From NCBI GenBank assembly GCA_041661005.1, contig JBAZVG010000001.1, positions 543,515-607,514 of the forward strand: DNA of 64,000 nucleotides, in the 5' to 3' direction. The number at the start of each line of letters is the position of its first letter. Positions within the stretch are counted from its first letter, which is position 1. Origin of the DNA: Minisyncoccota bacterium (lineage in GTDB: Bacteria > Patescibacteriota > Minisyncoccia > Phycocordibacterales > UBA9973). A model generated the notes under the pieces. That model was not told the origin of the DNA and searched no databases. It saw nothing but the letters and a program-made list of their open reading frames with translations. Both the position numbers and the translations under genes were made by a program. Shown here in pieces: positions 22,442 through 60,048 of the stretch.

Positions 22442-22519
22442 ACAAGTATGTCTTTTGTAAAATAAAAGAGTCCGAAGACTCAGCCCATAATTTACTATAA
22501 ACAACTCTAAAATGCAAGC

Positions 22520-22587
22520 CCCGTAGTGAAACTTTGCGACGCATTAACAAATGCATGCTTCGCATATCGCAAAGTTCTACTACAGGG
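22520..22587. repeat. Structured intergenic repeat, family B copy 1 (in the rpsL leader, overlapping the M50 protease stop)
   Basis: CCCCGTAGTGAAACTTTGCGA...TCGCAAAGTTCTACTACAGGG: an imperfect long palindrome. It shares both termini with copies at 56281-56355 and 59882-59953. The interior differs but stays base-paired. Confidence 0.7.
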
Positions 22588-23203
22588 CAAGACCGGTAAA
22601 TAAATGAAAAAGAAACGACAATATGGGCGCTAAATAATCAGAAAAGAAAACAATAAAAACTAGCAACAAAATCAAAGAATATTGCTCATAGGCAAAGATA
22701 AAAGAAGAAGCCTTAGCGGGTAAAAAAGAAAAAAGTATTTTAGAACCATCAAGCGGGGGGATCGGAACTAGATTAAATATACCTAAGGCTAGATTTACTA
22801 TGACAATCACCGAAGTTATAAAATAAAAACCTACTGGTAGCGCTAAACCAGAAGTGAGGCGAATGATAACTCCAAATATAATTGCAATAGAAAAGTTCGC
22901 CAGAACTCCTGCAATGGCAACCCAGAAAGTTCCCCATTTTTTATTACTCAAATTGTCTGGATTGTATGGCACCGGCTTCGCCCAACCAATTAAAAAAGGT
23001 GAATGGGATAAAACTAACAATGTTGGCAAAATAATTGAACCAAAAAGATCTAGATGTTTAAGTGGATTCAAGGTCAACCTTCCGGCAAAGCGCGCAGTCT
23101 TGTCGCCAAAATATTCCGCCATGAAACCATGAGATACTTCGTGGATCACTACAGACATGATGAGTATAGCTACATAAAAAATTGCGTTGGTGCTATTGGC
23201 CAT
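22580..23203 (-). CDS. Site-2 protease family (peptidase M50) zinc metalloprotease
   Basis: 207 aa polytopic membrane protein with HEVSHG (HExxH) and a downstream LDG motif. Confidence 0.8.
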   Translation of the reverse strand: MANSTNAIFYVAILIMSVVIHEVSHGFMAEYFGDKTARFAGRLTLNPLKHLDLFGSIILPTLLVLSHSPFLIGWAKPVPYNPDNLSNKKWGTFWVAIAGVLANFSIAIIFGVIIRLTSGLALPVGFYFITSVIVIVNLALGIFNLVPIPPLDGSKILFSFLPAKASSFIFAYEQYSLILLLVFIVFFSDYLAPILSFLFHLFTGLAL

Positions 23204-23521: not shown

Positions 23522-23540
23522 AAAACAAGAAGGAAATTTT

Positions 23541-23612
23541 TGCCGGTACGGATTTTTTGAAGCTTAAAAAATCCTGAAGTTTTCGGCTCGTCAGCCTCAA
23601 AACCCCTTAAAA
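23541..23612 (-). repeat. Structured repeat, family C copy a (inverted orientation; rpmB / helicase convergent 3' region)
   Basis: Reverse complement reads GGGGTTTTGAG-GCTGACGAGCC-GAAAACTTCAGGATTTTTTAAGCTTCAAAAAATCCGTACCGG. Matches 27389-27455 and 37694-37787 with compensatory changes in the first hairpin. Confidence 0.7.
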
Positions 23613-23642
23613 ACTTCCTTCTTATTTTCTATCTACGGAAAT

Positions 23643-25028
23643 CTACACTGGCACGAAAGTCAGCGCTGTGCCAGCTTTGCCACTTCGGCCGGTTCGGCCG
23701 ATACGATGCACATAGGTGTCGTAAGTTTGAGGCACATCATAGTTTATAACGTGTGTAACATCTGGAATATCAAGCCCCCTAGCGGCAACATCAGTCGCAA
23801 TCAAAATATTAATTTTATCTTGTTTAAATGAATCCAAAATGCGAATACGTTCACGACTTCTTTTGTCACCATGAATTCCGCCCACTTTGAATCCCATTGT
23901 GTGTAATTCTTTGGCGAGCGTATCCACGCTATGTTTCATCTCGCGGAAAATTAAAACCTTTTGGGTCGGACCGCTTGCCCCGCCGTGGCGTGGGTCTTTT
24001 TTCAAGACTTCATGCAACTTTTCTAACTTTTCTTCTTTGGTACGCACGCGAATTACGTCTTGATCAATATTTTTCGCCGTCTCGCCAGAGACGACAGAAA
24101 TAAAAGCTGGATCTTTCAAATATTGCTCAGTCATTTTTCTAATTTCTGGAGAAAGAGTCGCTGAAAAGAAAAGGGTTTGGCGTTCCTTTGCTGTCTTCCC
24201 TATTATAAACACCATATCATCTCGGAATCCCATATCAAGCATTCTGTCAGCTTCATCTAGCACGACACTGTGGCAAGTCGACAAGTCTAAAACTTTTTTC
24301 TCAATCAAGTCTCGCAAACGTCCGGGTGTGCCGATGACAAACGAAACTCCGAGCTTTATTTCCCTAATTTGTTTCATTATCGGCAATCCACCCACACATG
24401 CGACGGAAAACATCCCAAATCCAAAAGCTAGAGTTTTAAAATCACTTTCTATCTGAAGCGCGAGTTCACGAGTCGGCGCCATTATTAAAACTGTCTCTCT
24501 TTTATTTTGTCCTTTTGTTTTAGAAATTTTCTCAATTAAGGGAAGCAAGAAAGCTGCAGTTTTTCCTGTGCCAGTATTTGCCATACCAAAGACATCTTTG
24601 CCGGCTAAAATCGTCGGTATTGCTTGATCTTGAATTGGCCTAGGATTTTCAAAACCAGCTCCTTTTATATTTTTATGAAGTTGTGGATTAAAAGGAAAAT
24701 CGAGAAATGTGTGTCGGGAAACATAAGGTTTTTCCTCCACTCGAACACCTTTTTTAATGAAACGCGAAAAATCTATCCGTTCACCACGAGATCTCTTATT
24801 GCTTGAACGTCTAAAATTGCCCCCGCCTGCAACGCTATGCGTAGCATTGCGGGCAGGTCCAAAACGAGGACGAGAATTATTAAACCTGCCTCGACTTGCG
24901 CTGGACAAGGCGGGTTTTCCACTGCTTGAGTTGTATTTTGCTTTGTGAGCAAAAGTATGACTGCTAAATTTTTTCGGGTTAGCCGAATGGCTCGCCCGTA
25001 GGGCTATGCCCGAGGGATGTTTATACAT
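23643..25028 (-). CDS. DEAD-box ATP-dependent RNA helicase with ~110-aa R/S/G-rich N-terminal region
   Basis: Q motif (FENPRPIQ), motif I (GMANTGTGKT), DEAD (VLDEADRM), SAT, HRIGRTGR. The first ~20 codons overlap a family D mini-palindrome, so the true start is uncertain. Confidence 0.85.
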   Translation of the reverse strand: MYKHPSGIALRASHSANPKKFSSHTFAHKAKYNSSSGKPALSSASRGRFNNSRPRFGPARNATHSVAGGGNFRRSSNKRSRGERIDFSRFIKKGVRVEEKPYVSRHTFLDFPFNPQLHKNIKGAGFENPRPIQDQAIPTILAGKDVFGMANTGTGKTAAFLLPLIEKISKTKGQNKRETVLIMAPTRELALQIESDFKTLAFGFGMFSVACVGGLPIMKQIREIKLGVSFVIGTPGRLRDLIEKKVLDLSTCHSVVLDEADRMLDMGFRDDMVFIIGKTAKERQTLFFSATLSPEIRKMTEQYLKDPAFISVVSGETAKNIDQDVIRVRTKEEKLEKLHEVLKKDPRHGGASGPTQKVLIFREMKHSVDTLAKELHTMGFKVGGIHGDKRSRERIRILDSFKQDKINILIATDVAARGLDIPDVTHVINYDVPQTYDTYVHRIGRTGRSGKAGTALTFVPV

Positions 25029-25137: not shown

Positions 25138-26487
25138 ATGCCAAACATAGATAATTTAAAACATAGTCAAGTACAAATCAAAGGAGGTGGAAAAGTTATT
25201 GTTTTAGATACTGGATCAGTTATTGGTCCTGAAGCTGACGCTATGCTTCAGGCGCTCCATTCCAGATCTGTCGGAGGATTGGAAAGCCATCTCAAAATAC
25301 TTTCCGAAAAAGGACCGAATAATTTTATGAAAAATTTCTATGTCGGATATGGACATAAGTCTATAGGCGACTGTGGGAGTACTTCCCTTTTTATTGAGGG
25401 AATATCAATGCTCACAGCTAAGGCAATCCAAGATTGGGCACTTTATTCAGGACAAGAATCTTCGACTAGATACATTGATTTTCAAACTCAGCCTTTTAAA
25501 AATATACTAGGTACAAAAGAAGGAGAAGATATTCTTGAATCATATAGAAAATTTTATGTCGAAGCACTTCAACCGACAAAAGAATATTTAAAATCACAAT
25601 TCCCCCTTGATGCAGGTGAAAAGGAAAATATTTATATTAAAGCAATTGATGCCAGAGCCTTTGACATATTGAGAGGATTCTTACCAGCAGGATCAGCAAC
25701 TAACGTAGCTTGGCATACAAACCTGAGACAAGCAGCAGACAAAATAATGCTTCTTCGTCATCATCCGTTAGAAGAAGTAAGAAATGTTGCAAAAGCCATA
25801 GAGGAAGCTTTGCGCATGGCATTCCCAAATTCATTCGGACATGAACGTTATGAAAATACGGAAAATTACAATAAAGAATGGATGGAAAAAGATTATTATT
25901 ACCACGATAAAAACTGTCCGGATTTCAAAATGGTTAATAACTCTATAAACACTGATTTACTGCCAAGAAAAATTTTACAAAGCAGGCCAATAAAAACTGA
26001 ATTGCCAAAATATCTGGCTGAAGCTGGAAATTTACAATTTGAATTTTTACTTGATTTCGGGTCTTTTCGTGATTTACAAAGACATCGTGCGGTAATTCAA
26101 AGAATGCCACTCCTAACTACAGAAATTGGTTTTGAAAAATGGTATCTAGGTGAACTTCCTAAAGAATTAAAAAATAAAGCGGAATTATTTCTTAAAAAAC
26201 AAGAACAAAAAGTAAATAATTTAAAAATTTCAAAGGAAGAAAAGCAGTACTACACAGCCATGGGTTATCTTACTTCAAATAGGTTAACAGGAAATATCCC
26301 CGCTTTAGTTTATTTAGCAGAACTACGAGCTACAAGATTCGTGCATCCGACATTAAGAAAAAGGGCAAAAATGATAGCTGATACATTGTCGGAACTTTTA
26401 GGCAAATTTGGATTAGTAATGCATTTAGATAAAGAAATAGATAGATTTGATATTAAGCGCGGAGAACATGATATTGTTTTAAAATGA
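25138..26487 (+). CDS. Tandem-domain ThyX-like (flavin-dependent thymidylate synthase-like) protein
   Basis: 449 aa, two ThyX-like halves. Half 1 has ...YSGQESSTRYIDF and ...ATNVAWHTNLRQAADKIMLLRHHPLEEVRNVAKAIEEAL. Half 2 has ...FRDLQRHRAVIQ (the RHR motif) and ...ALVYLAELRATRFVHPTLRKRAKMIADTL. Each half lacks part of the canonical RHRxxxxxS...SQRY signature that the other retains. Confidence 0.5.
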   Translation: MPNIDNLKHSQVQIKGGGKVIVLDTGSVIGPEADAMLQALHSRSVGGLESHLKILSEKGPNNFMKNFYVGYGHKSIGDCGSTSLFIEGISMLTAKAIQDWALYSGQESSTRYIDFQTQPFKNILGTKEGEDILESYRKFYVEALQPTKEYLKSQFPLDAGEKENIYIKAIDARAFDILRGFLPAGSATNVAWHTNLRQAADKIMLLRHHPLEEVRNVAKAIEEALRMAFPNSFGHERYENTENYNKEWMEKDYYYHDKNCPDFKMVNNSINTDLLPRKILQSRPIKTELPKYLAEAGNLQFEFLLDFGSFRDLQRHRAVIQRMPLLTTEIGFEKWYLGELPKELKNKAELFLKKQEQKVNNLKISKEEKQYYTAMGYLTSNRLTGNIPALVYLAELRATRFVHPTLRKRAKMIADTLSELLGKFGLVMHLDKEIDRFDIKRGEHDIVLK

Positions 26488-27360: not shown

Positions 27361-27388
27361 AAAACAAAATTTTTAAAATATAACTTTT

Positions 27389-27455
27389 GGAGGGGTTTTG
27401 AGCGCGACGGCGCGAAAACTTCAGGATTTTTTAAGCTTCAAAAAATCCGTACCGG
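27389..27455 (+). repeat. Structured repeat, family C copy b
   Basis: GGAGGGGTTTTGAG-CGCGACGGCGCG-AAAACTTCAGGATTTTTTAAGCTTCAAAAAATCCGTACCGG. Confidence 0.7.
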
Positions 27456-27482
27456 AAAAAGTTCATATTTTAAAAATTTTGT

Positions 27483-30876: not shown

Positions 30877-31062
30877 TTACAGCAAAATTATTTTTTCCAA
30901 ACCTTTTGAAAAAATAAAATCGAAAATACCCAAATAATACGCTACGATGACAGACAAGACTATGACAATCAAAGTATAATAAAAGGTTTGGCTCCTGTTT
31001 GGCCAAATCACGTGCTTCAATTCTGTCTTTGTTTCTTTAAAATATTCAGTAATTTTTGACAT
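30877..31062 (-). CDS. secE: Preprotein translocase subunit SecE
   Basis: 61 aa, single TM helix, located upstream of nusG. Confidence 0.75.
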   Translation of the reverse strand: MSKITEYFKETKTELKHVIWPNRSQTFYYTLIVIVLSVIVAYYLGIFDFIFSKGLEKIILL

Positions 31063-31140
31063 CCCATTAGAAAATTAAAATAATAAACTTCAACTTTTTT
31101 ACAAGTTCCCTGATTTTCTAACGGGACAAGTAAATTCTTT
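31063..31140 (-). promoter_or_regulatory. Conserved ~75-nt promoter/5'UTR block shared by secE and ruvX
   Basis: Minus strand reads TACTTGTCCCGTTAGAAAATCAGGGAACTTGTAAAAAA...TTATTATTTTAATTTTCTAATGGG-ATG. The ruvX upstream reads TACTTGTCCCGTTAAAAAATCAGCGGACATGTGGAAAG...TTATTATTTTAATTTTTTAATAGG-ATG. Confidence 0.5.
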
Positions 31141-32766: not shown

Positions 32767-35700
32767 TTATCTATTTAACAAACTTCTCACCTCGTATCCG
32801 ACAATTCCATCGCTTTTTAATCCATTGTCAGTTTGGAATTTGATGACAGCCTCTTTGACTTTGGCACCGAAGTTTCCATCGACATTTCCAGCGTCATATC
32901 CTGCTCCATTCAAGAATTTCTGAAGCTCTCTGACTTCATTTCCATAAGAACCTTCTTCTAGAAATTGAGTGAAGTGAAAGGAACCTGCGTTAGAAACATT
33001 TCCATCTGTATTCGCCGTTCCGTTTATCGCGGTAGCAACTAGAGACGATGATAGATTGCGAGTGGTCGAACCTGAAGAACAAGTATATAATCTCGGATAA
33101 TCGCCAACGCCTACATTCACCCATTGAGATCCATCGAAACGATAATGATCTCCAGTCGTGGGATTATCACCCTGAACCTTCGAAGTTCCACTGGTATATA
33201 CTTTTCCCGGCACGGCTTGGCACCATTTTGTGGCCGTTCCGGTGTCATTGAAAGGCAAGAGGTCGCCATTTCCAAAATTCACTCGTGGATTGTAATAAAT
33301 ATCTCCTGAAGAGATACTAGTCATCCAACTAATGGACTTTAGATCAAGTGAATTAGTTACCGTCTTGTTAGCACATGCGCCATTTACTGAATACTCTGTA
33401 GAACAGGACATGAGAATGTTTGAAACTTTGCCGTCATCTGCACAGTAACCTTCAGCAACAGAAGTGCAAGAATCTCCGGAACATACTCCTCCATTCGAAG
33501 CAACAGATACATCCCTAAAATATGAACCTAACCCATTAACACGCCCGTCGGCAAGCCCCGCCACGTTTGGATTTCTTCCATCGTCAGAATCGGTGCAGGA
33601 CGATACAGTGGTTGGAGAGGTGATGGTGAAATAATTATTACTTAATCCGATTGCGAGTACGCCGCTTCCCGTCACAGTATCAAAAGCTTCGATACGGAGT
33701 TTGTAATGATTCCCGGCAGGAATCAGGTGTGGCATCGGCGTAGCCAGGGTGATTCTACTTGTTGAGAGCTGAATTGCGGTTGAGACCTGATAATTTAAGT
33801 TTGTATCGGTATTCAAGAGAAAAACGTTGGCTTGTTTGCCGACCAAACCGCTTGGTGTGAAATCAATTCCAATCACATCCGTCGAGCTGAATGTTCCCCC
33901 ATTTGGACTTGTAACGGTGATGGAAGGTTGAGTGGTAGAAACTGGACTAAAACTCACTCCAATAATATGACTCCCTGTAACATTGTAAAACGTATAGGAG
34001 GAGGCGACTGGAACAGTACTGTTATTATCAAGAGTAATAGTACTAACTTTGTAACCAACATTAGGAGTAAAAGTGAAAGTCTTGTTACTTCCAGCCGGAA
34101 CAGTAATATGTCCAGATGGAGAAATCGTTCCACCTTCGCTAGTAGAAGTAATAATCGTGGGTTGCGTTGCTCCAACAGAACAAAGAACATTACTACTTGC
34201 ATTAACATTGTTTAAAGTACAATCATTCCTAGCATTATTTGTACATCCCTGATAAACGCCACTCTTACTGAAACAAACGTTTTCAAACCCTTGATTTTTG
34301 CAAGAATTGTAATAACCTTGCTGGGTCTGTTGAAGGGTAGAACAACTTAGGGTTGAAGTCGTTGGAGAAGTGATGGTGAAAACACCACTTCGAGAAACAA
34401 TTCCATGTGGAATATCACTAATGATAATTTGTGTGTTTGTCATTGCAGTATCTGGTGTCCATGAGTATCGACAAGCATACGTGGCATCACATCTGCTTCC
34501 TGTTCCTTGAAGTTGGCCTGCAGAAATACTTGATACAATTGTCCTGTTACCACCGCTTGTTACATAAGCTATTGAGAATGAATCGTTTATATTACTGATA
34601 TTTGGGTCCAGCCATGTAATTTGATACGGTTGACCAACTACCAAATTTTCTCCACTTGTTGGACTAACGACAGTGATGGAAGGGCTAGTAGAAACAGTTC
34701 CCCTTGGTACTATATTTGATGCTGGAATGCTTATTCTTGCACTAGTGTTATCGGTGAAATTTAACAAGAGATAACCTCCGGCAAATCTCTGACTGCCGGG
34801 ATAACCATAAGCATAGAAACTAAGTCCACCATAAGCGGGAATTTGCCAGCCAATGTTGTCAGTTTGAGTGGCATTGGGTTCACAATTGACTCCGCAGGAT
34901 TGGCTTGTGGTCCATCCTAAAATGTAAAGATATTTACCAACAGGATTGTTGGATGAAGCATCAGTCGCCCAGCCTTCTCCGGAAGTGTTGTGCACAAGTA
35001 CCATTCTCTTGATGGTCTTCGCGCTAGAGCCCGAATTATTTATTTTAACTGCCCATTTCCAATCAGGACCATGAATTCTGCCCCCGATTGAAGTATTCCA
35101 TTTAATCGGATGGTCTTCACTGGCGCTTACTAATTCTGCGGAGCCGGTGATGTAGGGAGTTTGAGTATTAGTACCAGAAGTGATAGTGATAGTTGAATTG
35201 CTTAAACCACAAGTGTCGGAAGAACTTTGGCAAACTTTAACAGTATAAACTCCATCCGGAACAATCCCACTCAAATAATTACCTACTGTCCAATTGTAAG
35301 AAGAACCTTGAGTATTAGCAATGACATATACAGATCCAGTTGAAATTAGTTCTACTTCATGAGTAGAAATATTGTTTGTATCATTCCAACTAAGAGTTTT
35401 TGTTGTACCTCTCACCCACGTCACTCTCTCATTTGGGCTTGTGACAGTGATAGAAGGTTGGGTTGATGGTGTACCGATAGTAAACGAAATCGAGTTTTGT
35501 GTATTGAACGCAAGAGAGCCGTTTGAATTACGACCTTGTGCAGTTAGTGAATATAGTCCAGGAGGGAAATTGGGAACTGTAAAACTTAAATAAGTACCAA
35601 CTATGGATGCATCTGTATCACCAGATAAAGTTTTTCCAGCAAAGGTGACGGTGTAAGAATATGCACTATGTAAATCAAACATGTACATTGCGACTTTTTC

Positions 35701-36489
35701 ACCTGGCAGAGCATTATTTGTGCCTAAAGAAGTGATAGAAGGTTGAGTGGTATTCCCCACATTCACGCTCAAACTCGTCTGCGCAGTTTGACCAACTGCA
35801 TTTTGAACTGTAAACCTCGGAGTGAATATTCCTGATTTTACATAGCTATGTTGAAAGGTTGCAGACTGTGTCGGAATGTTAAGAACTTGCGAGTTAGAAC
35901 CTGCTTGTATATTAGTAGCTTCATCTCCCCAAAGCACAGAATACATGAGTTCTCCTCCATTTGGACTAGAAGCACGGACACTCCAAGTCCCTTGCTGATT
36001 GACATTCAATGTTTGTGGTCCACTTACTCCGCTGATAACTGGATTATTATTGGTTCCTTCTTCGCAAGACCTGCCGGTAGTAGAACTAAAACCTGTGTTT
36101 GAAGCACAACCTGGCGGAAAATTCGATGAGTTACCGCAAGGTAGACCCGTGGTTATGCTGTATCCGGAATTAGATGTACATCCCGCTGGAAAATTTGTGG
36201 AAACAAGACTATCGCATTTTACCCCAGTGAGCGGACTGTAGCCGGCAGTTGAAGTACAACCTGAGGGAAGCGATGAGTTAATTACTGTATCGCACTTTAC
36301 TCCGGTAAGTGGACTATACCCACGAGTTGAAGTACAACCTGCTGGCAAAGATCTGGTGGACGAAGATCCACTACCTCCACCGGAAGATCCTCTATTTATA
36401 GCTGCCATCTGCGCACTTGCAGAATTAGTAAAACCTAGTAAAGAAAATACTAAAGTAAAAATAAACAAAAACAATATGTATTTTTTCAT
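32767..36489 (-). CDS. Giant cell-surface protein with Cys-motif repeats and a C-terminal peptidoglycan-binding domain
   Basis: Likely start at MKKYILFLFIF (signal/TM). Four ~20-aa repeats xPxGC[TA]S[TN]xG[YF]SxxTGxxC, long beta-rich Thr/Ser-rich regions, and a C-terminal PG_binding_1-like segment (LQKFLNGAGYDAGNVDGNFGAKVKEAVIKFQTDNGLKSDGIVG). Confidence 0.7.
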   Translation of the reverse strand: MKKYILFLFIFTLVFSLLGFTNSASAQMAAINRGSSGGGSGSSSTRSLPAGCTSTRGYSPLTGVKCDTVINSSLPSGCTSTAGYSPLTGVKCDSLVSTNFPAGCTSNSGYSITTGLPCGNSSNFPPGCASNTGFSSTTGRSCEEGTNNNPVISGVSGPQTLNVNQQGTWSVRASSPNGGELMYSVLWGDEATNIQAGSNSQVLNIPTQSATFQHSYVKSGIFTPRFTVQNAVGQTAQTSLSVNVGNTTQPSITSLGTNNALPGEKVAMYMFDLHSAYSYTVTFAGKTLSGDTDASIVGTYLSFTVPNFPPGLYSLTAQGRNSNGSLAFNTQNSISFTIGTPSTQPSITVTSPNERVTWVRGTTKTLSWNDTNNISTHEVELISTGSVYVIANTQGSSYNWTVGNYLSGIVPDGVYTVKVCQSSSDTCGLSNSTITITSGTNTQTPYITGSAELVSASEDHPIKWNTSIGGRIHGPDWKWAVKINNSGSSAKTIKRMVLVHNTSGEGWATDASSNNPVGKYLYILGWTTSQSCGVNCEPNATQTDNIGWQIPAYGGLSFYAYGYPGSQRFAGGYLLLNFTDNTSARISIPASNIVPRGTVSTSPSITVVSPTSGENLVVGQPYQITWLDPNISNINDSFSIAYVTSGGNRTIVSSISAGQLQGTGSRCDATYACRYSWTPDTAMTNTQIIISDIPHGIVSRSGVFTITSPTTSTLSCSTLQQTQQGYYNSCKNQGFENVCFSKSGVYQGCTNNARNDCTLNNVNASSNVLCSVGATQPTIITSTSEGGTISPSGHITVPAGSNKTFTFTPNVGYKVSTITLDNNSTVPVASSYTFYNVTGSHIIGVSFSPVSTTQPSITVTSPNGGTFSSTDVIGIDFTPSGLVGKQANVFLLNTDTNLNYQVSTAIQLSTSRITLATPMPHLIPAGNHYKLRIEAFDTVTGSGVLAIGLSNNYFTITSPTTVSSCTDSDDGRNPNVAGLADGRVNGLGSYFRDVSVASNGGVCSGDSCTSVAEGYCADDGKVSNILMSCSTEYSVNGACANKTVTNSLDLKSISWMTSISSGDIYYNPRVNFGNGDLLPFNDTGTATKWCQAVPGKVYTSGTSKVQGDNPTTGDHYRFDGSQWVNVGVGDYPRLYTCSSGSTTRNLSSSLVATAINGTANTDGNVSNAGSFHFTQFLEEGSYGNEVRELQKFLNGAGYDAGNVDGNFGAKVKEAVIKFQTDNGLKSDGIVGYEVRSLLNR

Positions 36490-36540
36490 ATACCTAAGTA
36501 TACCCACCCCGGGCGAATTTGTTAAATAAGTTATCCACAC

Positions 36541-37693: not shown

Positions 37694-37787
37694 TGAAGGG
37701 GTTTCGAGGCTGTCGAGCCGAGAACTTCCCTTGGCCGTCCCGGCACGGGCGAGGCAGGATTTTTTAAGCTTAAAAAAATCCGTACCG
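37694..37787 (+). repeat. Structured repeat, family C copy c (with a 27-nt internal insertion)
   Basis: GAAGGGGTTTCGAG-GCTGTCGAGCC-GAGAACTTCC[insert CTTGGCCGTCCCGGCACGGGCGAGGC]AGGATTTTTTAAGCTTAAAAAAATCCGTACCG. Confidence 0.65.
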
Positions 37788-37799
37788 AAAAAAAATTGA

Positions 37800-40239: not shown

Positions 40240-41280
40240 CTAAATCAAATTAACTTCTGAGGTAAGTTCAAGACCAAATTTTTCTTTTACATCAACGATG
40301 ATTTTATTTGCCAGAGCCAACACTTCTTCTCCTTTTGCTTTACCATAATTTACCAAAACTAACGCTTGTTTTTCATGGACGCCAACATTTCCAAGCCTTT
40401 GTCCTTTCCACCCACATTGTTCGATCAACCATCCAGCTGGGATTTTGACAAGATTATCTTCTTCAAAATACGGCATTTCCGGATATGCTTTTTGCAGTTT
40501 TTTTAATTCCTCCGGTTGTACAAAAATATTTTTAAAAAAACTACCTGCGTTAGGAATGCTAACCGGATCTGGAAGTTTACTCCTGCGTATAGCAGAAACC
40601 GCATTGCTTATATCCCTCGGCCGTAGCCCTACGGGCGAGTCCTTTAAACTTCTGACTTCAATTTTATTTTTCTCTAAATAATCCTGTAAAATTTTATAAG
40701 TTACATTTTTATTTTCTTTTTTACTTAATCGAAGAGTTGTCGCGATAATAAAATATTTTTCCTTTAATTCATTTTTAAAAATACTATCTCGGTAGCCAAG
40801 TTTGCATTCTTCTTTGCTGAAAACCATCTTTTCTCCAGTAATAATATTAATCGTCTCGACATTTTCTAATACATTTTTGAGCTCGACTCCATACGCTCCG
40901 ATATTTTGCATCGGCGCTGCGCCGACTGTCCCCGGGATAAGCGCCAAATTCTCGATGCCCCACAAATCACGTTCCACTGCAAAAGTCACAAGATCGTGCC
41001 AAATCTCTCCGCCCATGGCGCGAACCATAACGGTTTCAGAATTTTCTGATAGAATCTCAATACCTTTCAATTTATTTAAAACAACTAAACCATCGAAATC
41101 TTTAGTAAACAAAACATTGCTCCCTCCGCCGAGAAATAATTTATTGCTGTTTTGAAACTCTTTCGTAGTCAAAAGTTCTTTTAAATCGGCCTCATTCGCG
41201 ATTTCTACAAAAAATTTAGCATTCACCGAAATGCTAAAAGTGTTTAACTTTGACAAATTGTAGTTGTGCTCTATTTTCAC
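40240..41280 (-). CDS. murB: UDP-N-acetylenolpyruvoylglucosamine reductase
   Basis: 346 aa with an FAD-binding PCMH domain (LFLGGGSNVLF) and the MurB C-terminal KLPDP...GSFFKN motif. Contains an in-frame copy of the family D mini-palindrome at 40614-40639 encoding DSPVGLRPRD. Confidence 0.85.
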   Translation of the reverse strand: MKIEHNYNLSKLNTFSISVNAKFFVEIANEADLKELLTTKEFQNSNKLFLGGGSNVLFTKDFDGLVVLNKLKGIEILSENSETVMVRAMGGEIWHDLVTFAVERDLWGIENLALIPGTVGAAPMQNIGAYGVELKNVLENVETINIITGEKMVFSKEECKLGYRDSIFKNELKEKYFIIATTLRLSKKENKNVTYKILQDYLEKNKIEVRSLKDSPVGLRPRDISNAVSAIRRSKLPDPVSIPNAGSFFKNIFVQPEELKKLQKAYPEMPYFEEDNLVKIPAGWLIEQCGWKGQRLGNVGVHEKQALVLVNYGKAKGEEVLALANKIIVDVKEKFGLELTSEVNLI

Positions 41281-42849: not shown

Positions 42850-42935
42850 AATTGGGTGCCTATTCGGTTATGCTCCGAATCTAAGAGCTCCACAAGCTCT
42901 TGTGCTACTATTACACCATAGGCACCATGTATTGA
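42850..42935. other. Nested multi-hairpin element between the P-type ATPase and the DUF1003 gene
   Basis: GGTGCCTAT[TTCGG..CCGAA][TAAGAGCT-ccaca-AGCTCTT]...ATAGGCACC: a 9-bp outer stem enclosing two inner hairpins. Confidence 0.3.
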
Positions 42936-46427: not shown

Positions 46428-46513
46428 TGGTGCGCGGGAGAGGAATCGCACCTCCACGCCCTTGCGGGCACTACCACCTCAAGGTAGCTCGGCTACTGTT
46501 ACGACACCCGCGC
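46428..46513 (-). tRNA. tRNA-Leu(GAG)-like, class II, atypical D and T loops
   Basis: Minus strand reads GCGCGGG-UG-UCG-UAACAGUAGC-CGA-G-CUACC-UUGAGGU-GGUAG-[UGCCCGCAAGGGCGUG]-GGAGG-UGCGAUU-CCUCU-CCCGCGC-A-CCA. Perfect 7-bp acceptor, encoded CCA, long variable arm. The D-loop lacks GG and the T-loop is UGCGAUU, so it may be a variant or a pseudo-tRNA. Confidence 0.5.
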
Positions 46514-46522
46514 ATGTTTTTG

Positions 46523-47200
46523 TCAATAGTATGTTTGTTGTTGCTTGTAGTTAATTTTTAAAGCCTTCTCTATCTTTAACCTCTTGCGCGACAGACACAT
46601 GACTTTTTTATCATAGTACATTCTTTTAATAATTTCCAGCGCTTCCTTTTTCGCATATTTAAGTTGAAAAGTGCTCCCTTTACCATCTTTAGTTATGTGA
46701 CCATAAATATTTAATCTACACTTGAGTTCTTCTCTTAACCAATCAATGTGTTTTTTGCTGGCAGAAATAAATTCTAAGTAAAACATAAAACTAGATCTCC
46801 ATCTTTTGTCCCAATAGGAATAGAAAGTTCCGTCTCCGTCAAAACACCCTCTTAGAAAATCAAAGAAATATTTAGGTGGCATTAAAACTTTACCAATTGT
46901 TTTAGACTTTTTAGCATACAATCCTATCGACTCTAAAAATCTATATAAAAGCACATCACCAAATTGTACTTTGTGTGATAAATTACCATCATAACCAGAA
47001 ATCGCCTTACCTATTTTAACATCAAGATTAAAACACTTCATGAAGTTATTAATCTGCTCAATTTCTTTAGAAACAAAAGCTATATGGCGATTATCGGGTG
47101 AAAGATTCCCATCCGTAGTTAAAAGTCCAATTGCATACGCAAAATTTTCTGACCATTTTATTTTTACTTTACCTTTTGGCTTTGGTCCCCTCTTCCCCAT
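46523..47200 (-). mobile_element. LAGLIDADG homing endonuclease (double-motif), free-standing
   Basis: 225 aa with two dodecapeptide motifs: FAYAIGLLTTDGNL and FLRGCFDGDGTF. Sits 9 nt upstream of the tRNA-Leu-like gene. The 12-mer TACCTTGAGGTG from the tRNA anticodon arm is repeated just upstream of its start codon (47215-47226), next to an extended -10 TGATATAAT. Confidence 0.8.
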
Positions 47201-49520: not shown

Positions 49521-50321
49521 TTATTTTATCACCTTTCCGAACTCTTTAGGCACTGTTGATTCAACTTTTACAGTCTTGCCCTTTAAATTTTCAAATTCAA
49601 TAGATTTTGCATGAAGTGCCATGCGAGAAATGCCTTTCGGGCAAAAACCGTCTGGATTATAAAGCAAATCACAAACCACTGGATGATTCAAGAATTTCAT
49701 GTGCACACGGATCTGATGCGTTCGGCCGGTTTTAGGCTTAACTTCAAGATAAGTAAAAGGCAATTGATCTAGCACATCAAAATTTTTCCTCCTGCGCCCT
49801 TCCCCGAGTACGGGGCGGGACCCTCGGAGATAAAAATTTTGATACGCTTTCGCTTTGAATCGCTTTAAAACTTTGTATTCAGTAATTGCTTCACGCATTT
49901 CTCCTCTTGCTCCTCTGCCAGCCAAATGACGACGGAAATCTTTTGGACTCCTACCAATTGGTTTATTTATAATTCCTCTATCATTTTTTACCCAACCAGA
50001 AACTATTGTGTAATAAGTTTTTTTTATTGTTCTATCTTGAAATTGTTTTTTGAGAAATTCATGCGCTTTTTTATTTTTTGCTAAAAGCATAACACCGGAA
50101 GTGTCACGATCTAAACGGTGTACAACTTCGAGTTTGGGATATTTTTTCAAAAAAATACTAAGAATTGTACTTTTGTCCGAGCCTGCCCCGTGCCGAACTC
50201 TTTGTCCCGTAGTGAGCTTTGCTCTACTACTGGGATGTTCTGGTGCAGGGTGCACCAAAATACCCGACGGTTTATCGATGGCTAGAATATTTGTATCTTC
50301 GTATAAAACTTTTATTTTCAT
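49521..50321 (-). CDS. RluA-family pseudouridine synthase
   Basis: 266 aa with the catalytic motif HRLDRDTSGVML and ...THQIRVH... Confidence 0.8.
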   Translation of the reverse strand: MKIKVLYEDTNILAIDKPSGILVHPAPEHPSSRAKLTTGQRVRHGAGSDKSTILSIFLKKYPKLEVVHRLDRDTSGVMLLAKNKKAHEFLKKQFQDRTIKKTYYTIVSGWVKNDRGIINKPIGRSPKDFRRHLAGRGARGEMREAITEYKVLKRFKAKAYQNFYLRGSRPVLGEGRRRKNFDVLDQLPFTYLEVKPKTGRTHQIRVHMKFLNHPVVCDLLYNPDGFCPKGISRMALHAKSIEFENLKGKTVKVESTVPKEFGKVIK

Positions 50322-56195: not shown

Positions 56196-56280
56196 CCTAT
56201 TAAAAAATTAAAATAATAATGCTTACTCTTTCCACATGTCCGCTGATTTTTTAACGGGACAAGTATTTTAGATACTAGCA

Positions 56281-56355
56281 CCCCGTAGTGAATTTTGGAA
56301 ATGCGCGGAGCGTGCTCCGACGCAAGTCGGAACTTTTCCAAAATCTACTACTGGG
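56281..56355. repeat. Structured intergenic repeat, family B copy 2
   Basis: CCCCGTAGTGAATTTTGGAAA-[TGCGCGGAGCGTGCTCCGACGCAAGTCGGAAC]-TTTTCCAAAATCTACTACTGGG. Confidence 0.7.
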
Positions 56356-56390
56356 TAGCATAAAACCTATTTTTCTGATATGATTTTATT

Positions 56391-56759: not shown

Positions 56760-57014
56760 ATGTATATGTTTAAGGTTTATATTTTAAAAAGCTTAAATTA
56801 TAACCGTTACTACATCGGTCATAGTGCAGATGTTGAAAAAAGATTAAGGGAACATAATATTGGAAAGGTTCATTCGACTAAAGCATACAAATCTTGGAAA
56901 ATAGTGTATATTGAGAATAAACCAAGTAAGAAAGAAGCGTACGCTAGGGAAATGCAAATAAAATCTTTCAAACATGGCGAAGCTTTTAAAAAATTAATTG
57001 AAAATAAAATTTAA
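56760..57014 (+). mobile_element. GIY-YIG nuclease family protein (small URI-domain homing-endonuclease-like)
   Basis: 84 aa with MYMFKVYILKSLNYNRYYIGHSADVEKRLREHN...WKIVYIE...EAYAREMQIKS, the GIY-x10-YIG core plus R and E catalytic residues. Confidence 0.75.
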
Positions 57015-57033: not shown

Positions 57034-57122
57034 GGAGGCGTCGCATAGTTGGTCTAGTGCGCTTGTCTTGAAAACAAGTACGCCGCAAGGCGTCGTGAGT
57101 TCGAATCTCACCGCCTCCGCCA
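57034..57122 (+). tRNA. tRNA-Ser(TGA)
   Basis: GGAGGCG-UC-GCAU-AGUUGGUCUA-GUGC-G-CUUGU-CUUGAAA-ACAAG-[UACGCCGCAAGGCGUC]-GUGAG-UUCGAAU-CUCAC-CGCCUCC-G-CCA. Long variable arm, anticodon UGA, encoded CCA. Confidence 0.9.
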
Positions 57123-57926: not shown

Positions 57927-58283
57927 TTTAACGTCTGATTAAGCCTTATTCCTCAACAACCAGTTCCAACAGCGTACCCCTCGGTCGTAGCCCTACGGGT
58001 GAGACAAACTGCCTTCGCCTGCCAAAAGGTTTGTAAAGACCACATATATTGTTACACTGTAAAAAAAATAGACAAAAGATATCTAATCTGTTATACTAGC
58101 GGAGTTGAATTTTAGAAATTTATTTTAATTCGGTTTAGGGGAATATTCCATATATTATGAAGTGTTTAAAGCAAAATTTTCCACGCCACGGCGAGGTAAA
58201 TAAAATCTTTTTTAACGTACGCTTTGGGCTAGGGACAAATCCATAAATATAGGGACATGTTCTTGTAAGCTGACATAAAGCTT

Positions 58284-59816: not shown

Positions 59817-59881
59817 AAAATATTGGAAATATAATTTTTGTCAAATTGCACAGCCTCTTGCCTTAAAAAACCCTTGATATA

Positions 59882-59953
59882 TCCCGGTAGTGAATTTTGG
59901 CAAAGCATTAAATGCGCTCGCTTTGCGAGCATTGCCAAAATCTACTAACCGGG
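59882..59953. repeat. Structured intergenic repeat, family B copy 3
   Basis: TCCCGGTAGTGAATTTTGGCAAAGCATTAAATGCGCTCGCTTTGCGAGCATTGCCAAAATCTACTAACCGGG. Confidence 0.7.
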
Positions 59954-60048
59954 TATAATGTATGGGTATTAAAAATAAGGGTAAAAGTCCCGCCTGCGCA
60001 CAAAGCTTCGGCGTGGCAAGGTCGAAAGAATTATTAATAGTTAGTTAA

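Follow-up and report, generated by a model that had tools for sequence, protein, structure and literature searches.

A probable new family of MITE-like palindromic insertion elements in Patescibacteria

Background

The Correia elements (CREE) of Neisseria and the RUP elements of pneumococci are small, non-coding, multi-copy sequences with terminal inverted repeats, target duplications and insertion polymorphism, in which the whole unit can form a hairpin. In the present study, we analyzed a palindromic repeat with the same set of properties in a 64,000-nt stretch of DNA from a Minisyncoccota bacterium (contig JBAZVG010000001.1, assembly GCA_041661005.1; hereafter, the window). The genomes of Patescibacteria, also called the candidate phyla radiation (CPR), are tiny and are thought to carry few mobile elements. 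Our analysis indicates that the repeat is probably a non-autonomous mobile DNA element of the kind known as miniature inverted-repeat transposable elements (MITEs), specific to Patescibacteria.

Correia elements are frequently associated with promoters. The repeat described here lies in a nucleotide-exact register with the resident -35 hexamer, extended -10 box or start codon and brings no promoter parts of its own, which sets it apart from bacterial MITEs. It differs from them in other respects as well: its target duplication is of 4-5 bp with the form T-N-N-(N)-R, not TA; its interiors differ from one another within a single genome and yet are structured, with covarying arms; and its core spans phylum-level CPR lineages rather than one genus, with no cognate insertion sequence (IS) found. 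The Rickettsia palindromic elements (RPE) are likewise palindromic, reside in reduced genomes and occur between genes as well as in frame within protein genes, where translation turns them into additional peptide segments. The present element, however, is shorter, has clear target duplications and empty and occupied alleles, is seldom found in genes (about 6 of 124 copies) and belongs to another host lineage. We know of no sequence relationship with RPE, and the likeness is one of behavior only.

Three further systems deserve comparison. Repetitive extragenic palindromic (REP) sequences and REPINs resemble the element in their GTAG motif, a conserved irregularity of the stem, long-term persistence in a lineage and a dispersed, mostly extragenic distribution; one survey (PMC3733652) treats GTAG-tagged palindromic repeats as a superfamily. 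In REPs, unlike the present element, the GTAG lies outside the stem, target duplication is absent and the location is extragenic. The attC sites of integrons are imperfect palindromes with conserved ends, a variable centre and unpaired bases that distinguish the folded strands, all of which recall the element. The element, in contrast, lacks the R''/R' core (RYYYAAC / GTTRRRY), a cassette array and a nearby integrase and is dispersed among housekeeping genes, and attC sites are not flanked by target duplications. Finally, the eukaryotic retroelement Ty3, which targets the start sites of RNA polymerase III, resembles the element in that its insertion positions are fixed relative to landmarks of transcription to one or two nucleotides. 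This is an analogy only, because the kingdom, the class of element and the mechanism are different, and targeting through polymerase or sigma factor is no more than a hypothesis in our case. The element is not a REP or REPIN, an attC site, an intrinsic terminator or a member of an Rfam family.

Results and Discussion

Copies in the window and their fold

A preliminary description of the window had listed three copies of an imperfect palindrome of about 70 nt with conserved termini. All three exist, and the core pattern GTAGTGAA-N30-60-CTACTA has exactly three matches in the window against 0.02 expected from shuffles. A covariance-model search added a fourth copy, of a mini form, that the description had overlooked. 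The direct repeats flanking the three full-length copies had also been missed. The copies and their flanking repeats are as follows.

22519-22587, + strand: copy A, full length (covariance model 62 bits, core pattern, fold)
22515-22518: left target duplication of copy A, CAAG (read from the sequence)
22588-22591: right target duplication of copy A, CAAG (from the flank listing)
56281-56355, + strand: copy B, full length, between ruvX (-) and a DUF5652 gene (+) (covariance model 67 bits)
56276-56280: left target duplication of copy B, TAGCA (the - strand reads TGCTA, within TGCTAGTAT)
56356-56360: right target duplication of copy B, TAGCA (element-free relatives have one TAGCA, in ATACTAGCATAAAA)
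59883-59953, + strand: copy C, full length, between rny and hup (covariance model 63 bits)
59878-59881: left direct repeat of copy C, TATA, imperfect, with an extra T at 59882 before the element
59954-59957: right direct repeat of copy C, TATA, which opens a TATAAT -10-like box (59954-59959, +) facing hup
50205-50234, + strand: fourth copy, 30-nt mini form (covariance model 21.4 bits, E = 7e-4)

Copies A, B and C thus all have one orientation. The genes beside them (M50 protease and rpsL for copy A, ruvX and the DUF5652 small membrane protein for copy B, rny and hup for copy C) had been named in the same way before, and the names agree with our protein scan. The M50 protease open reading frame (ORF), on the - strand, reads 8 nt into copy A and terminates at a TAG (22580-22582) in its right arm; read from the sequence, without copy A the frame would have closed three codons later. 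At fourteen further copies of the family, an ORF likewise enters the element and is closed by the TAG that lies just within an arm.

The fold of the full-length copies starts with an outer stem of 4 bp (CCCN/NGGG). Then come GUAGUG/UACUAC, with a G.U as its last pair, one A.C mismatch and an inner stem of about 10 bp, topped by two small hairpins. The predicted energies are -34 to -41 kcal/mol with z-scores of -6 to -8, about equal on both strands. The right arm of copy C has one additional A. The mini copy is reduced to the conserved core and the outer stem, with a loop of 3 nt, and it has no clear target duplication. No U-tract follows the right arm in the window copies or in the 124 flanks listed for the family, and in this sense the earlier judgment that the palindrome is not a terminator holds.

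Distribution of the family

We scanned 596 Gb of genomes, one genome per species, with a pattern of 21 fixed bases. At least 120 genome loci matched (loci are designated by L numbers throughout), whereas chance alone would give an estimated 8 or so (596 Gb x 2 strands x 31 gap lengths / 4^21). The family statistics given below rest on the copies among the matches listed (124 copies with flanks). Almost all of the listed loci are from Patescibacteria, mostly of Parcubacteria-type lineages, and include Yanofsky-, Nomura-, Nealson-, Zambryski-, Moran-, Lipton-, Portnoy-, Yonath- and Gottesmanbacteria, Kazan and others; a few records (L009, L031, L037 and L076) carry other phylum labels, as deposited. 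The element was not matched in viral contigs, phage records or plasmid records. A search of the window against Rfam at the gathering threshold returned tRNAs only, and the regions of the three copies, searched with E up to 10, gave only generic matches far below the threshold, mostly to eukaryotic microRNA-precursor hairpins with a few others. No description of the element was found by full-text literature searches. These repeats probably represent a new family of MITE-like palindromic insertion elements that is widespread in CPR bacteria.

Most elements are about 56-90 bp in size, mini forms are about 30-45 bp and rare ones are about 130 bp (overall range, 30-138 nt). The left arm is CCNN-GTAGTGAA followed by about 10 bp and the right arm is about 10 bp followed by TCTACTAC-NNGG, the ends being CCNNGTAGTGAA and TCTACTACNNGG. 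The two arms differ constantly, with GA on the left and AG on the right, which gives a tandem G.T / A.C mismatch in the hairpin form. Since the scan pattern fixed the core and several arm positions, the invariance of the arms is partly a matter of ascertainment; the core and the GA/AG asymmetry are also kept, however, in copies obtained through the covariance model or the RuvX route, which are independent of the pattern. In each strand, one frame has stop codons close within both ends of the element (TAG TGA in one strand, TAG TAG in the other).

Target duplications, empty sites and turnover

The copies are flanked by direct repeats. In one fixed register, an exact repeat of 4 nt was found at 68 of the 124 copies, of 5 nt at 17 and of 6 nt at 3; with a flexible register, 103 of the 124 real copies have repeats of at least 4 nt, as against about 15% of mismatched-flank pairs. 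The repeats are direct and not complementary, and therefore they are not a simple extension of the stem. The first base of the duplicated target is T in 54 of 68 cases and C in 12 of the other 14, and the last base is A or G in 67 of the 68, so that the target has the form T-N-N-(N)-R.

Empty sites were found upstream of ruvX. In a RuvX-anchored scan of 80 metagenomic loci (RuvX identity 70-83%), most loci have the unbroken ATACTAGCATAAAA with a single TAGCA, whereas the arrangement TAGCA-element-TAGCA is present in the window and in L123, L153, L161, L180 and L190. The element in the window is opposite in orientation to those in the other five. A decayed left arm is all that is left at this site in L122 and L142, and L121 has a degenerate arm followed by other inserted sequence, which may be a third decayed half-element. 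The presence of empty and occupied versions of one site in relatives is direct proof of insertion with target duplication. The preliminary description had suggested a REP- or MITE-like element. The MITE part of this suggestion is borne out by the terminal inverted repeats, the target duplications, the small size, non-coding nature and multiple copies (4 in 64 kb), the presence/absence polymorphism, the nested and tandem copies and the in-frame insertions in genes described below. A REP in the strict sense is contradicted by the presence of a duplication and by a GTAG that lies in the stem.

These results also bear on the possibility that the element is REP/REPIN-like and is moved as single-stranded DNA by a REP-associated tyrosine transposase (RAYT) or an IS200/IS605-type HUH (Y1) transposase, which would read the hairpin, the mismatch and the GTAG. 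The GTAG is present in both arms, both strands have hairpin potential, and the conserved asymmetric mismatch or bulge of the stem recalls extrahelical bases, which HUH enzymes read. REPs and IS200/IS605 elements, however, insert without target duplication, whereas here a variable duplication of 4-5 nt is the rule and the empty sites hold exactly one copy of the target. Moreover, the GTAG is base-paired inside the stem instead of lying 5' of it, copies occur inside genes, and orientation is unbiased with respect to the majority coding strand, our proxy for the direction of replication. The outer 4 nt do not visibly track the duplicated 4-mer, so that they do not look like a guide. No RAYT gene was present among the window proteins scanned, although no systematic RAYT search was made. 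We consider movement by such an enzyme very unlikely. Separately from this, a guide role of the variable outer 4 nt was considered for the family as such and was dropped, as no relation to the duplicated 4-mer was apparent in the flank listing.

Several observations indicate turnover of the element. One copy is nested in another in L115, and tandem copies with one common TTGA occur in L002, L024 and L055. Perfect duplications are kept in 71% of the copies, though the flanks have diverged by 20-40% between species. At orthologous sites, both copies of the duplication have changed together (TCGG in L001 versus TTGG in L023; TGATA in L038 versus TGCTA in L079), and one orthologous site is occupied in L007 and L078 by unrelated elements that are opposite in orientation. 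All this is most simply read as repeated loss of the element and its renewed insertion at preferred sites rather than as a single ancient insertion.

Two recurrent arrangements were noted in addition. The site TGGACCNGGG recurs in five loci (L007, L063, L072, L078 and L117), where the order is TATAATGGCTTATTATTGGA, element, GGACC(N)GGG. It adjoins a TATAAT box, just downstream of it, and may represent the 5' terminus of an RNA that is not annotated; nothing was found in Rfam for these five loci. Furthermore, arms-only forms of 37-45 nt are present just downstream of ruvX in five relatives:

L123, 7592-7629: arms-only form
L132, 678-715: arms-only form
L173, 10793-10829: arms-only form
L161, 2835-2879: arms-only form
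L171, 1023-1067: arms-only form

TTATA stands on both sides in four of these, and the right side in L173 is CTATA. The left repeat completes an extended -10 box of the TGATATTAT type that faces into the element.

Copies inside genes

Copies in genes were found by removing the element and one repeat in silico and then searching for ORFs that span the site. Six copies are clearly in genes (L016, L060, L064, L071, L074 and L119), about 6 of the 124; most copies are intergenic. The hosts are UvrC, diphosphomevalonate decarboxylase, an RsmI-like methylase, AP endonuclease, dihydrouridine synthase (Dus) and one unnamed protein. In all six, the length plus 4 is a multiple of three and the insert has no stop codon; the frame condition alone has p ~0.0014. 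The insert divides the Pfam domain match into two parts in the RsmI-like methylase, AP endonuclease and Dus, stretches it in the decarboxylase and separates two domains in UvrC. The mini copy of the window (50205-50234) encodes PSSRAKLTTG in frame in an RluA-type pseudouridine synthase gene (49521-50321, - strand; Pfam PseudoU_synth_2). The best-matching relative (L136) has a gap of exactly 10 residues at this site, and L155 lacks 12. Insertions in genes survive only if the frame is kept and no stop codon is introduced.

We also considered whether the element is a removable intervening sequence, either intron-like or a translational bypass as in T4 gene 60 and the mitochondrial 'byps', with the direct repeats marking splice boundaries or the points of take-off and landing. 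Direct repeats do flank a hairpin, stop codons lie inside each end, and two copies reside in tRNA-like sequence. An insert that is removed or bypassed, however, has no need to be open and in frame, whereas all six copies in genes are both; these inserts appear to be translated rather than removed. Most copies, moreover, are intergenic. Removal is thus extremely improbable for the family, and both splicing and translational bypass are contradicted by the frame and openness of every clear in-gene copy. The idea of a tRNA intron was likewise rejected, as both copies in tRNA sequences sit in gene fragments and not in functional genes. One (L010, 3965-4085) is in the D-loop of a partial tRNA duplicate just upstream of an intact tRNA-Ile, and the other (L086, 5565-5660, - strand) is in the T-loop of a 3' tRNA fragment beside an unrelated tRNA-Pro.

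Constraint on the palindrome

It had been proposed that the interiors of the three copies in the window are unrelated in sequence and yet self-complementary, and that the family is maintained by structure. The first statement is correct for these copies, and the second is supported by the family at large. In an alignment of 60 copies, each arm comprises 21-22 positions or so, 20 of which are paired, and the arms are mirror images. Arm pairing holds in 95.4% of the cells; shuffling lowers this share to 78.7% and sliding of the partner columns to 36-46%. Changes on both sides were seen in 10 of the 20 arm pairs. The tip between the arms varies in sequence, with a mean z of -2.7 against shuffles, and forms two hairpins in 69 of 125 cases and one in 53 of 125. 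Copies at the same orthologous site are 76-99% identical across species, whereas their flanks are 58-80% identical, and a compensatory change from C-G to U-A distinguishes L096 from L102.

A structured RNA that acts in the transcript, for example as an RNase III-type processing site, a 5' or 3' stabilizing hairpin, a terminator without a U-tract or a regulator of leaderless translation, could be kept by the host with mobility being secondary. The very stable fold, the strong covariation, the better conservation of same-site copies than of their flanks with compensatory change, and the location of many copies between the end of a gene and the next promoter are all consistent with this. The data, however, single out neither strand. 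The orientation relative to the local coding strand is 55:43; among non-Watson-Crick pairs at variable stem positions, G.U-type and A.C-type pairs are 52:53 overall and 16:19 on the mRNA strand, so that there is no excess of G.U on the strand of the element or of the mRNA; and the folding energy is the same on both strands. In-gene copies are open and in frame, the ruvX site holds either orientation, and neither an Rfam match nor a U-tract is present. The earlier suggestion of a small-RNA family is not supported by these counts, and an RNA kept by the host for its function seems to us unlikely.

The palindromy is under selection with neither strand favored. As orientation, the G.U and A.C counts and the folding energies single out no strand, the constraint looks like one on a DNA-level palindrome and not on one RNA strand, which is the reading that we prefer. 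Selection may also act at the RNA level, as frequent change of site and orientation would erase a strand-specific RNA signature.

Register with promoters and start codons

We scanned outward from the element junctions for sigma-70-type promoters (TTGnnn agreeing with TTGACA in four or more of its six positions, then 16-18 nt, then TAnnnT). The duplication and the -35 hexamer start together (offset 0) in 22 flanks, and the hexamer starts one base later (offset 1) in 9, whereas each of the offsets 3-59 has 0-2 flanks. Complete promoters at offsets 0-2 are present at 32 of 117 copies. Where the flank starts with TTGAC, a -10 box follows in 21 of 22 cases, compared with 39% of the intergenic TTGAC sequences in the same loci. 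The flanks that start with TGnTA are extended -10 boxes, TGnTAnn[A/T]T, in nine of nine cases, including the ruvX side of copy B. In total, 41 of 117 copies (35%) adjoin a promoter in exact register. In a large share of the copies, the target corresponds to the first bases of the -35 hexamer (TTGA of TTGAC), to those of the extended -10 box (TGnTA) or to a leaderless start codon (TATG). Duplication of the target preserves an intact promoter or start codon on one side of the element.

The copies in the window show the same arrangement. At the left end of copy A, a -35-like TTGCAT (22517-22512, - strand), 17 nt and TAAATT (22494-22489) are directed towards rpsL, the TTGCAT overlapping the left duplication (CAAG). 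At copy B, TGCTAGTAT forms an extended -10-like box that faces ruvX and overlaps the left duplication.

Eleven additional copies adjoin a start codon; the gene is on the side of the right arm (TCTACTAC) in 11 of 11 cases (two-sided p ~0.001), and in most of them the left flank has a -10 box, then 6-7 nt and ATG, which is the layout of a leaderless gene. This one-sided orientation is the sole observation that asks for an effect at the level of RNA or expression, and it counts in favor of the RNA alternative discussed above.

Selection against disruptive insertions surely contributes to the promoter register. Compactness of the genomes as its sole cause is weakened by the finding that about half of the checked copies of the -35 class have at least 40 nt of free intergenic DNA beyond the element, yet hardly any promoters start at offsets 3-59. 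Because of this free DNA beyond many copies, and because non-promoter TTGAC is almost never used, some form of targeting is likely. A bolder possibility, doubtful but not far-fetched, is that the promoter complex itself directs integration, at the upstream edge of the -35 hexamer, at the upstream edge of the -10 box or at the leaderless start. The distortions of DNA by RNA polymerase or sigma factor would then be entry points for the inserting enzyme, a conserved and unrecognized host recombinase would keep the element and its sister families mobile across the CPR, and the 11:0 bias would follow from the recruitment of some copies as 5' hairpins of leaderless mRNAs. To our knowledge, promoter-targeted transposition in bacteria would be new.

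Sister families and the mobilizing enzyme

An end-anchored search for palindromes with duplications recovered three families, of which the element described above is one. The second has arms CCCNCACACTTA...TAAGTGTGNGGG and a tip with two hairpins and is located just upstream of ruvX in L128, L162 and L181, where it occupies the TAGCA site of copy B with the same TAGCA duplication. The third has arms (T)CCCGTTAGAAA...TTTCTAACGGG(A) and is present twice in the window, as a 73-nt repeat:

31063-31125: third-family copy at the start codon of a 61-aa ORF (30877-31062, - strand)
56196-56258: third-family copy at the start codon of ruvX (- strand)

In L149, L153, L196 and L199, the third family is found just after the ATG of the DUF5652 gene with TGGA on both sides. 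The shared CCC...GGG ends and 4-5 bp duplications, and for the second family the same TAGCA target, suggest that the sister families have common machinery with the element.

Integration would take place at a staggered cut of 4-5 nt made by an enzyme acting in trans, and the 4-5 bp duplication points to a cut of the kind made by DDE transposases. IS1380-type elements have duplications of 4-5 bp and ends that start with CC, and they may be regarded as a possible lead to the enzyme. Such an enzyme would need both ends to stay identical. So short a duplex probably cannot loop to bring its ends together, and folding back or extrusion of a cruciform may do so instead. A transcript that folds compactly and thus does little harm would be a possible secondary benefit.

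Several points weigh against a MITE-like element. In 1.57 Mb of fetched CPR DNA with about 150 copies, we found no pair of arms 150-4000 bp apart with a matching duplication. In the same 1.57 Mb, a search for ORFs with inverted repeats and a duplication on their flanks yielded nothing credible; four weak AT-rich matches were judged to be due to chance. A Pfam scan of 29 window proteins detected no transposase. The interiors within one genome are unrelated and yet structured and the arms covary, which a transposase that binds only the termini would not need. The same 8-nt core is found across phylum-level lineages, far more widely than in a usual MITE, although this is partly due to ascertainment. 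The 11:0 orientation at start codons is not predicted by a DNA element that is blind to orientation. Finally, the promoter register could reflect targeting, selection or both. With these points taken into account, a mobile DNA element of the MITE kind remains the probable explanation.

Implications for CPR genomes

Genomes of the CPR are remodeled by this hairpin insertion family and at least two sister families at promoters, at start codons, at gene ends and in the interior of proteins. Annotation has to reckon with elements that provide stop codons, lengthen conserved enzymes by 10-27 residues and give rise to apparent 'leaders'. The exact association with -35 hexamers, extended -10 boxes and leaderless genes amounts to a sequence-based map of real promoters in organisms that are mostly uncultured. 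The search for the enzyme is also well posed, as the distribution of the element across about 100 genomes can be compared with that of protein families.

Other features of the window

Two further short repeats were noted in the window.

24986-25018, 40611-40644 and 57975-58006, with a weaker copy at 37725-37753, in both orientations: GC-rich short hairpin repeat, CCCTCGG(C/T)CGTAGCCCTACGGG(C/T)GAG
23535-23616, 27382-27463 (inverted) and 37755-37797: repeat of about 82 nt with the hairpin GGATTTTTT-AAGCTT-AAAAAATCC followed by GTACCG (87-95% identity)

The GC-rich repeat contains CGTAG...CTACG and may be a smaller relative of the element or a separate family. A motif resembling the 82-nt repeat is also present in L124.

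Two genes of possible nucleases adjoin tRNA genes. The ORF at 46523-47200 (- strand) has a weak LAGLIDADG_3 match and adjoins tRNA-Leu (46428-46513); it may be a free-standing or degenerate homing endonuclease. An 84-aa stand-alone GIY-YIG nuclease gene (56760-57014, + strand) is beside tRNA-Ser (57034-57122) and about 400 nt from copy B, and nothing ties it to the element. Both tRNA-His (42854-42925) and the above tRNA-Leu were called by ARAGORN and are absent from the Rfam tRNA list of the whole window at the gathering threshold. A gene at 32767-36540 (- strand) encodes a 1257-aa protein whose sole Pfam match is a C-terminal peptidoglycan-binding domain. It contains a 33-nt DNA motif four times at spacings of about 760, 770 and 285 nt, which suggests large internal repeats in the protein. 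Lastly, the 449-aa ORF at 25138-26487 (+ strand) matches the ThyX (Thy1) domain at residues 56-231 only; it is longer than expected for ThyX and may be a fusion or contain an insertion.

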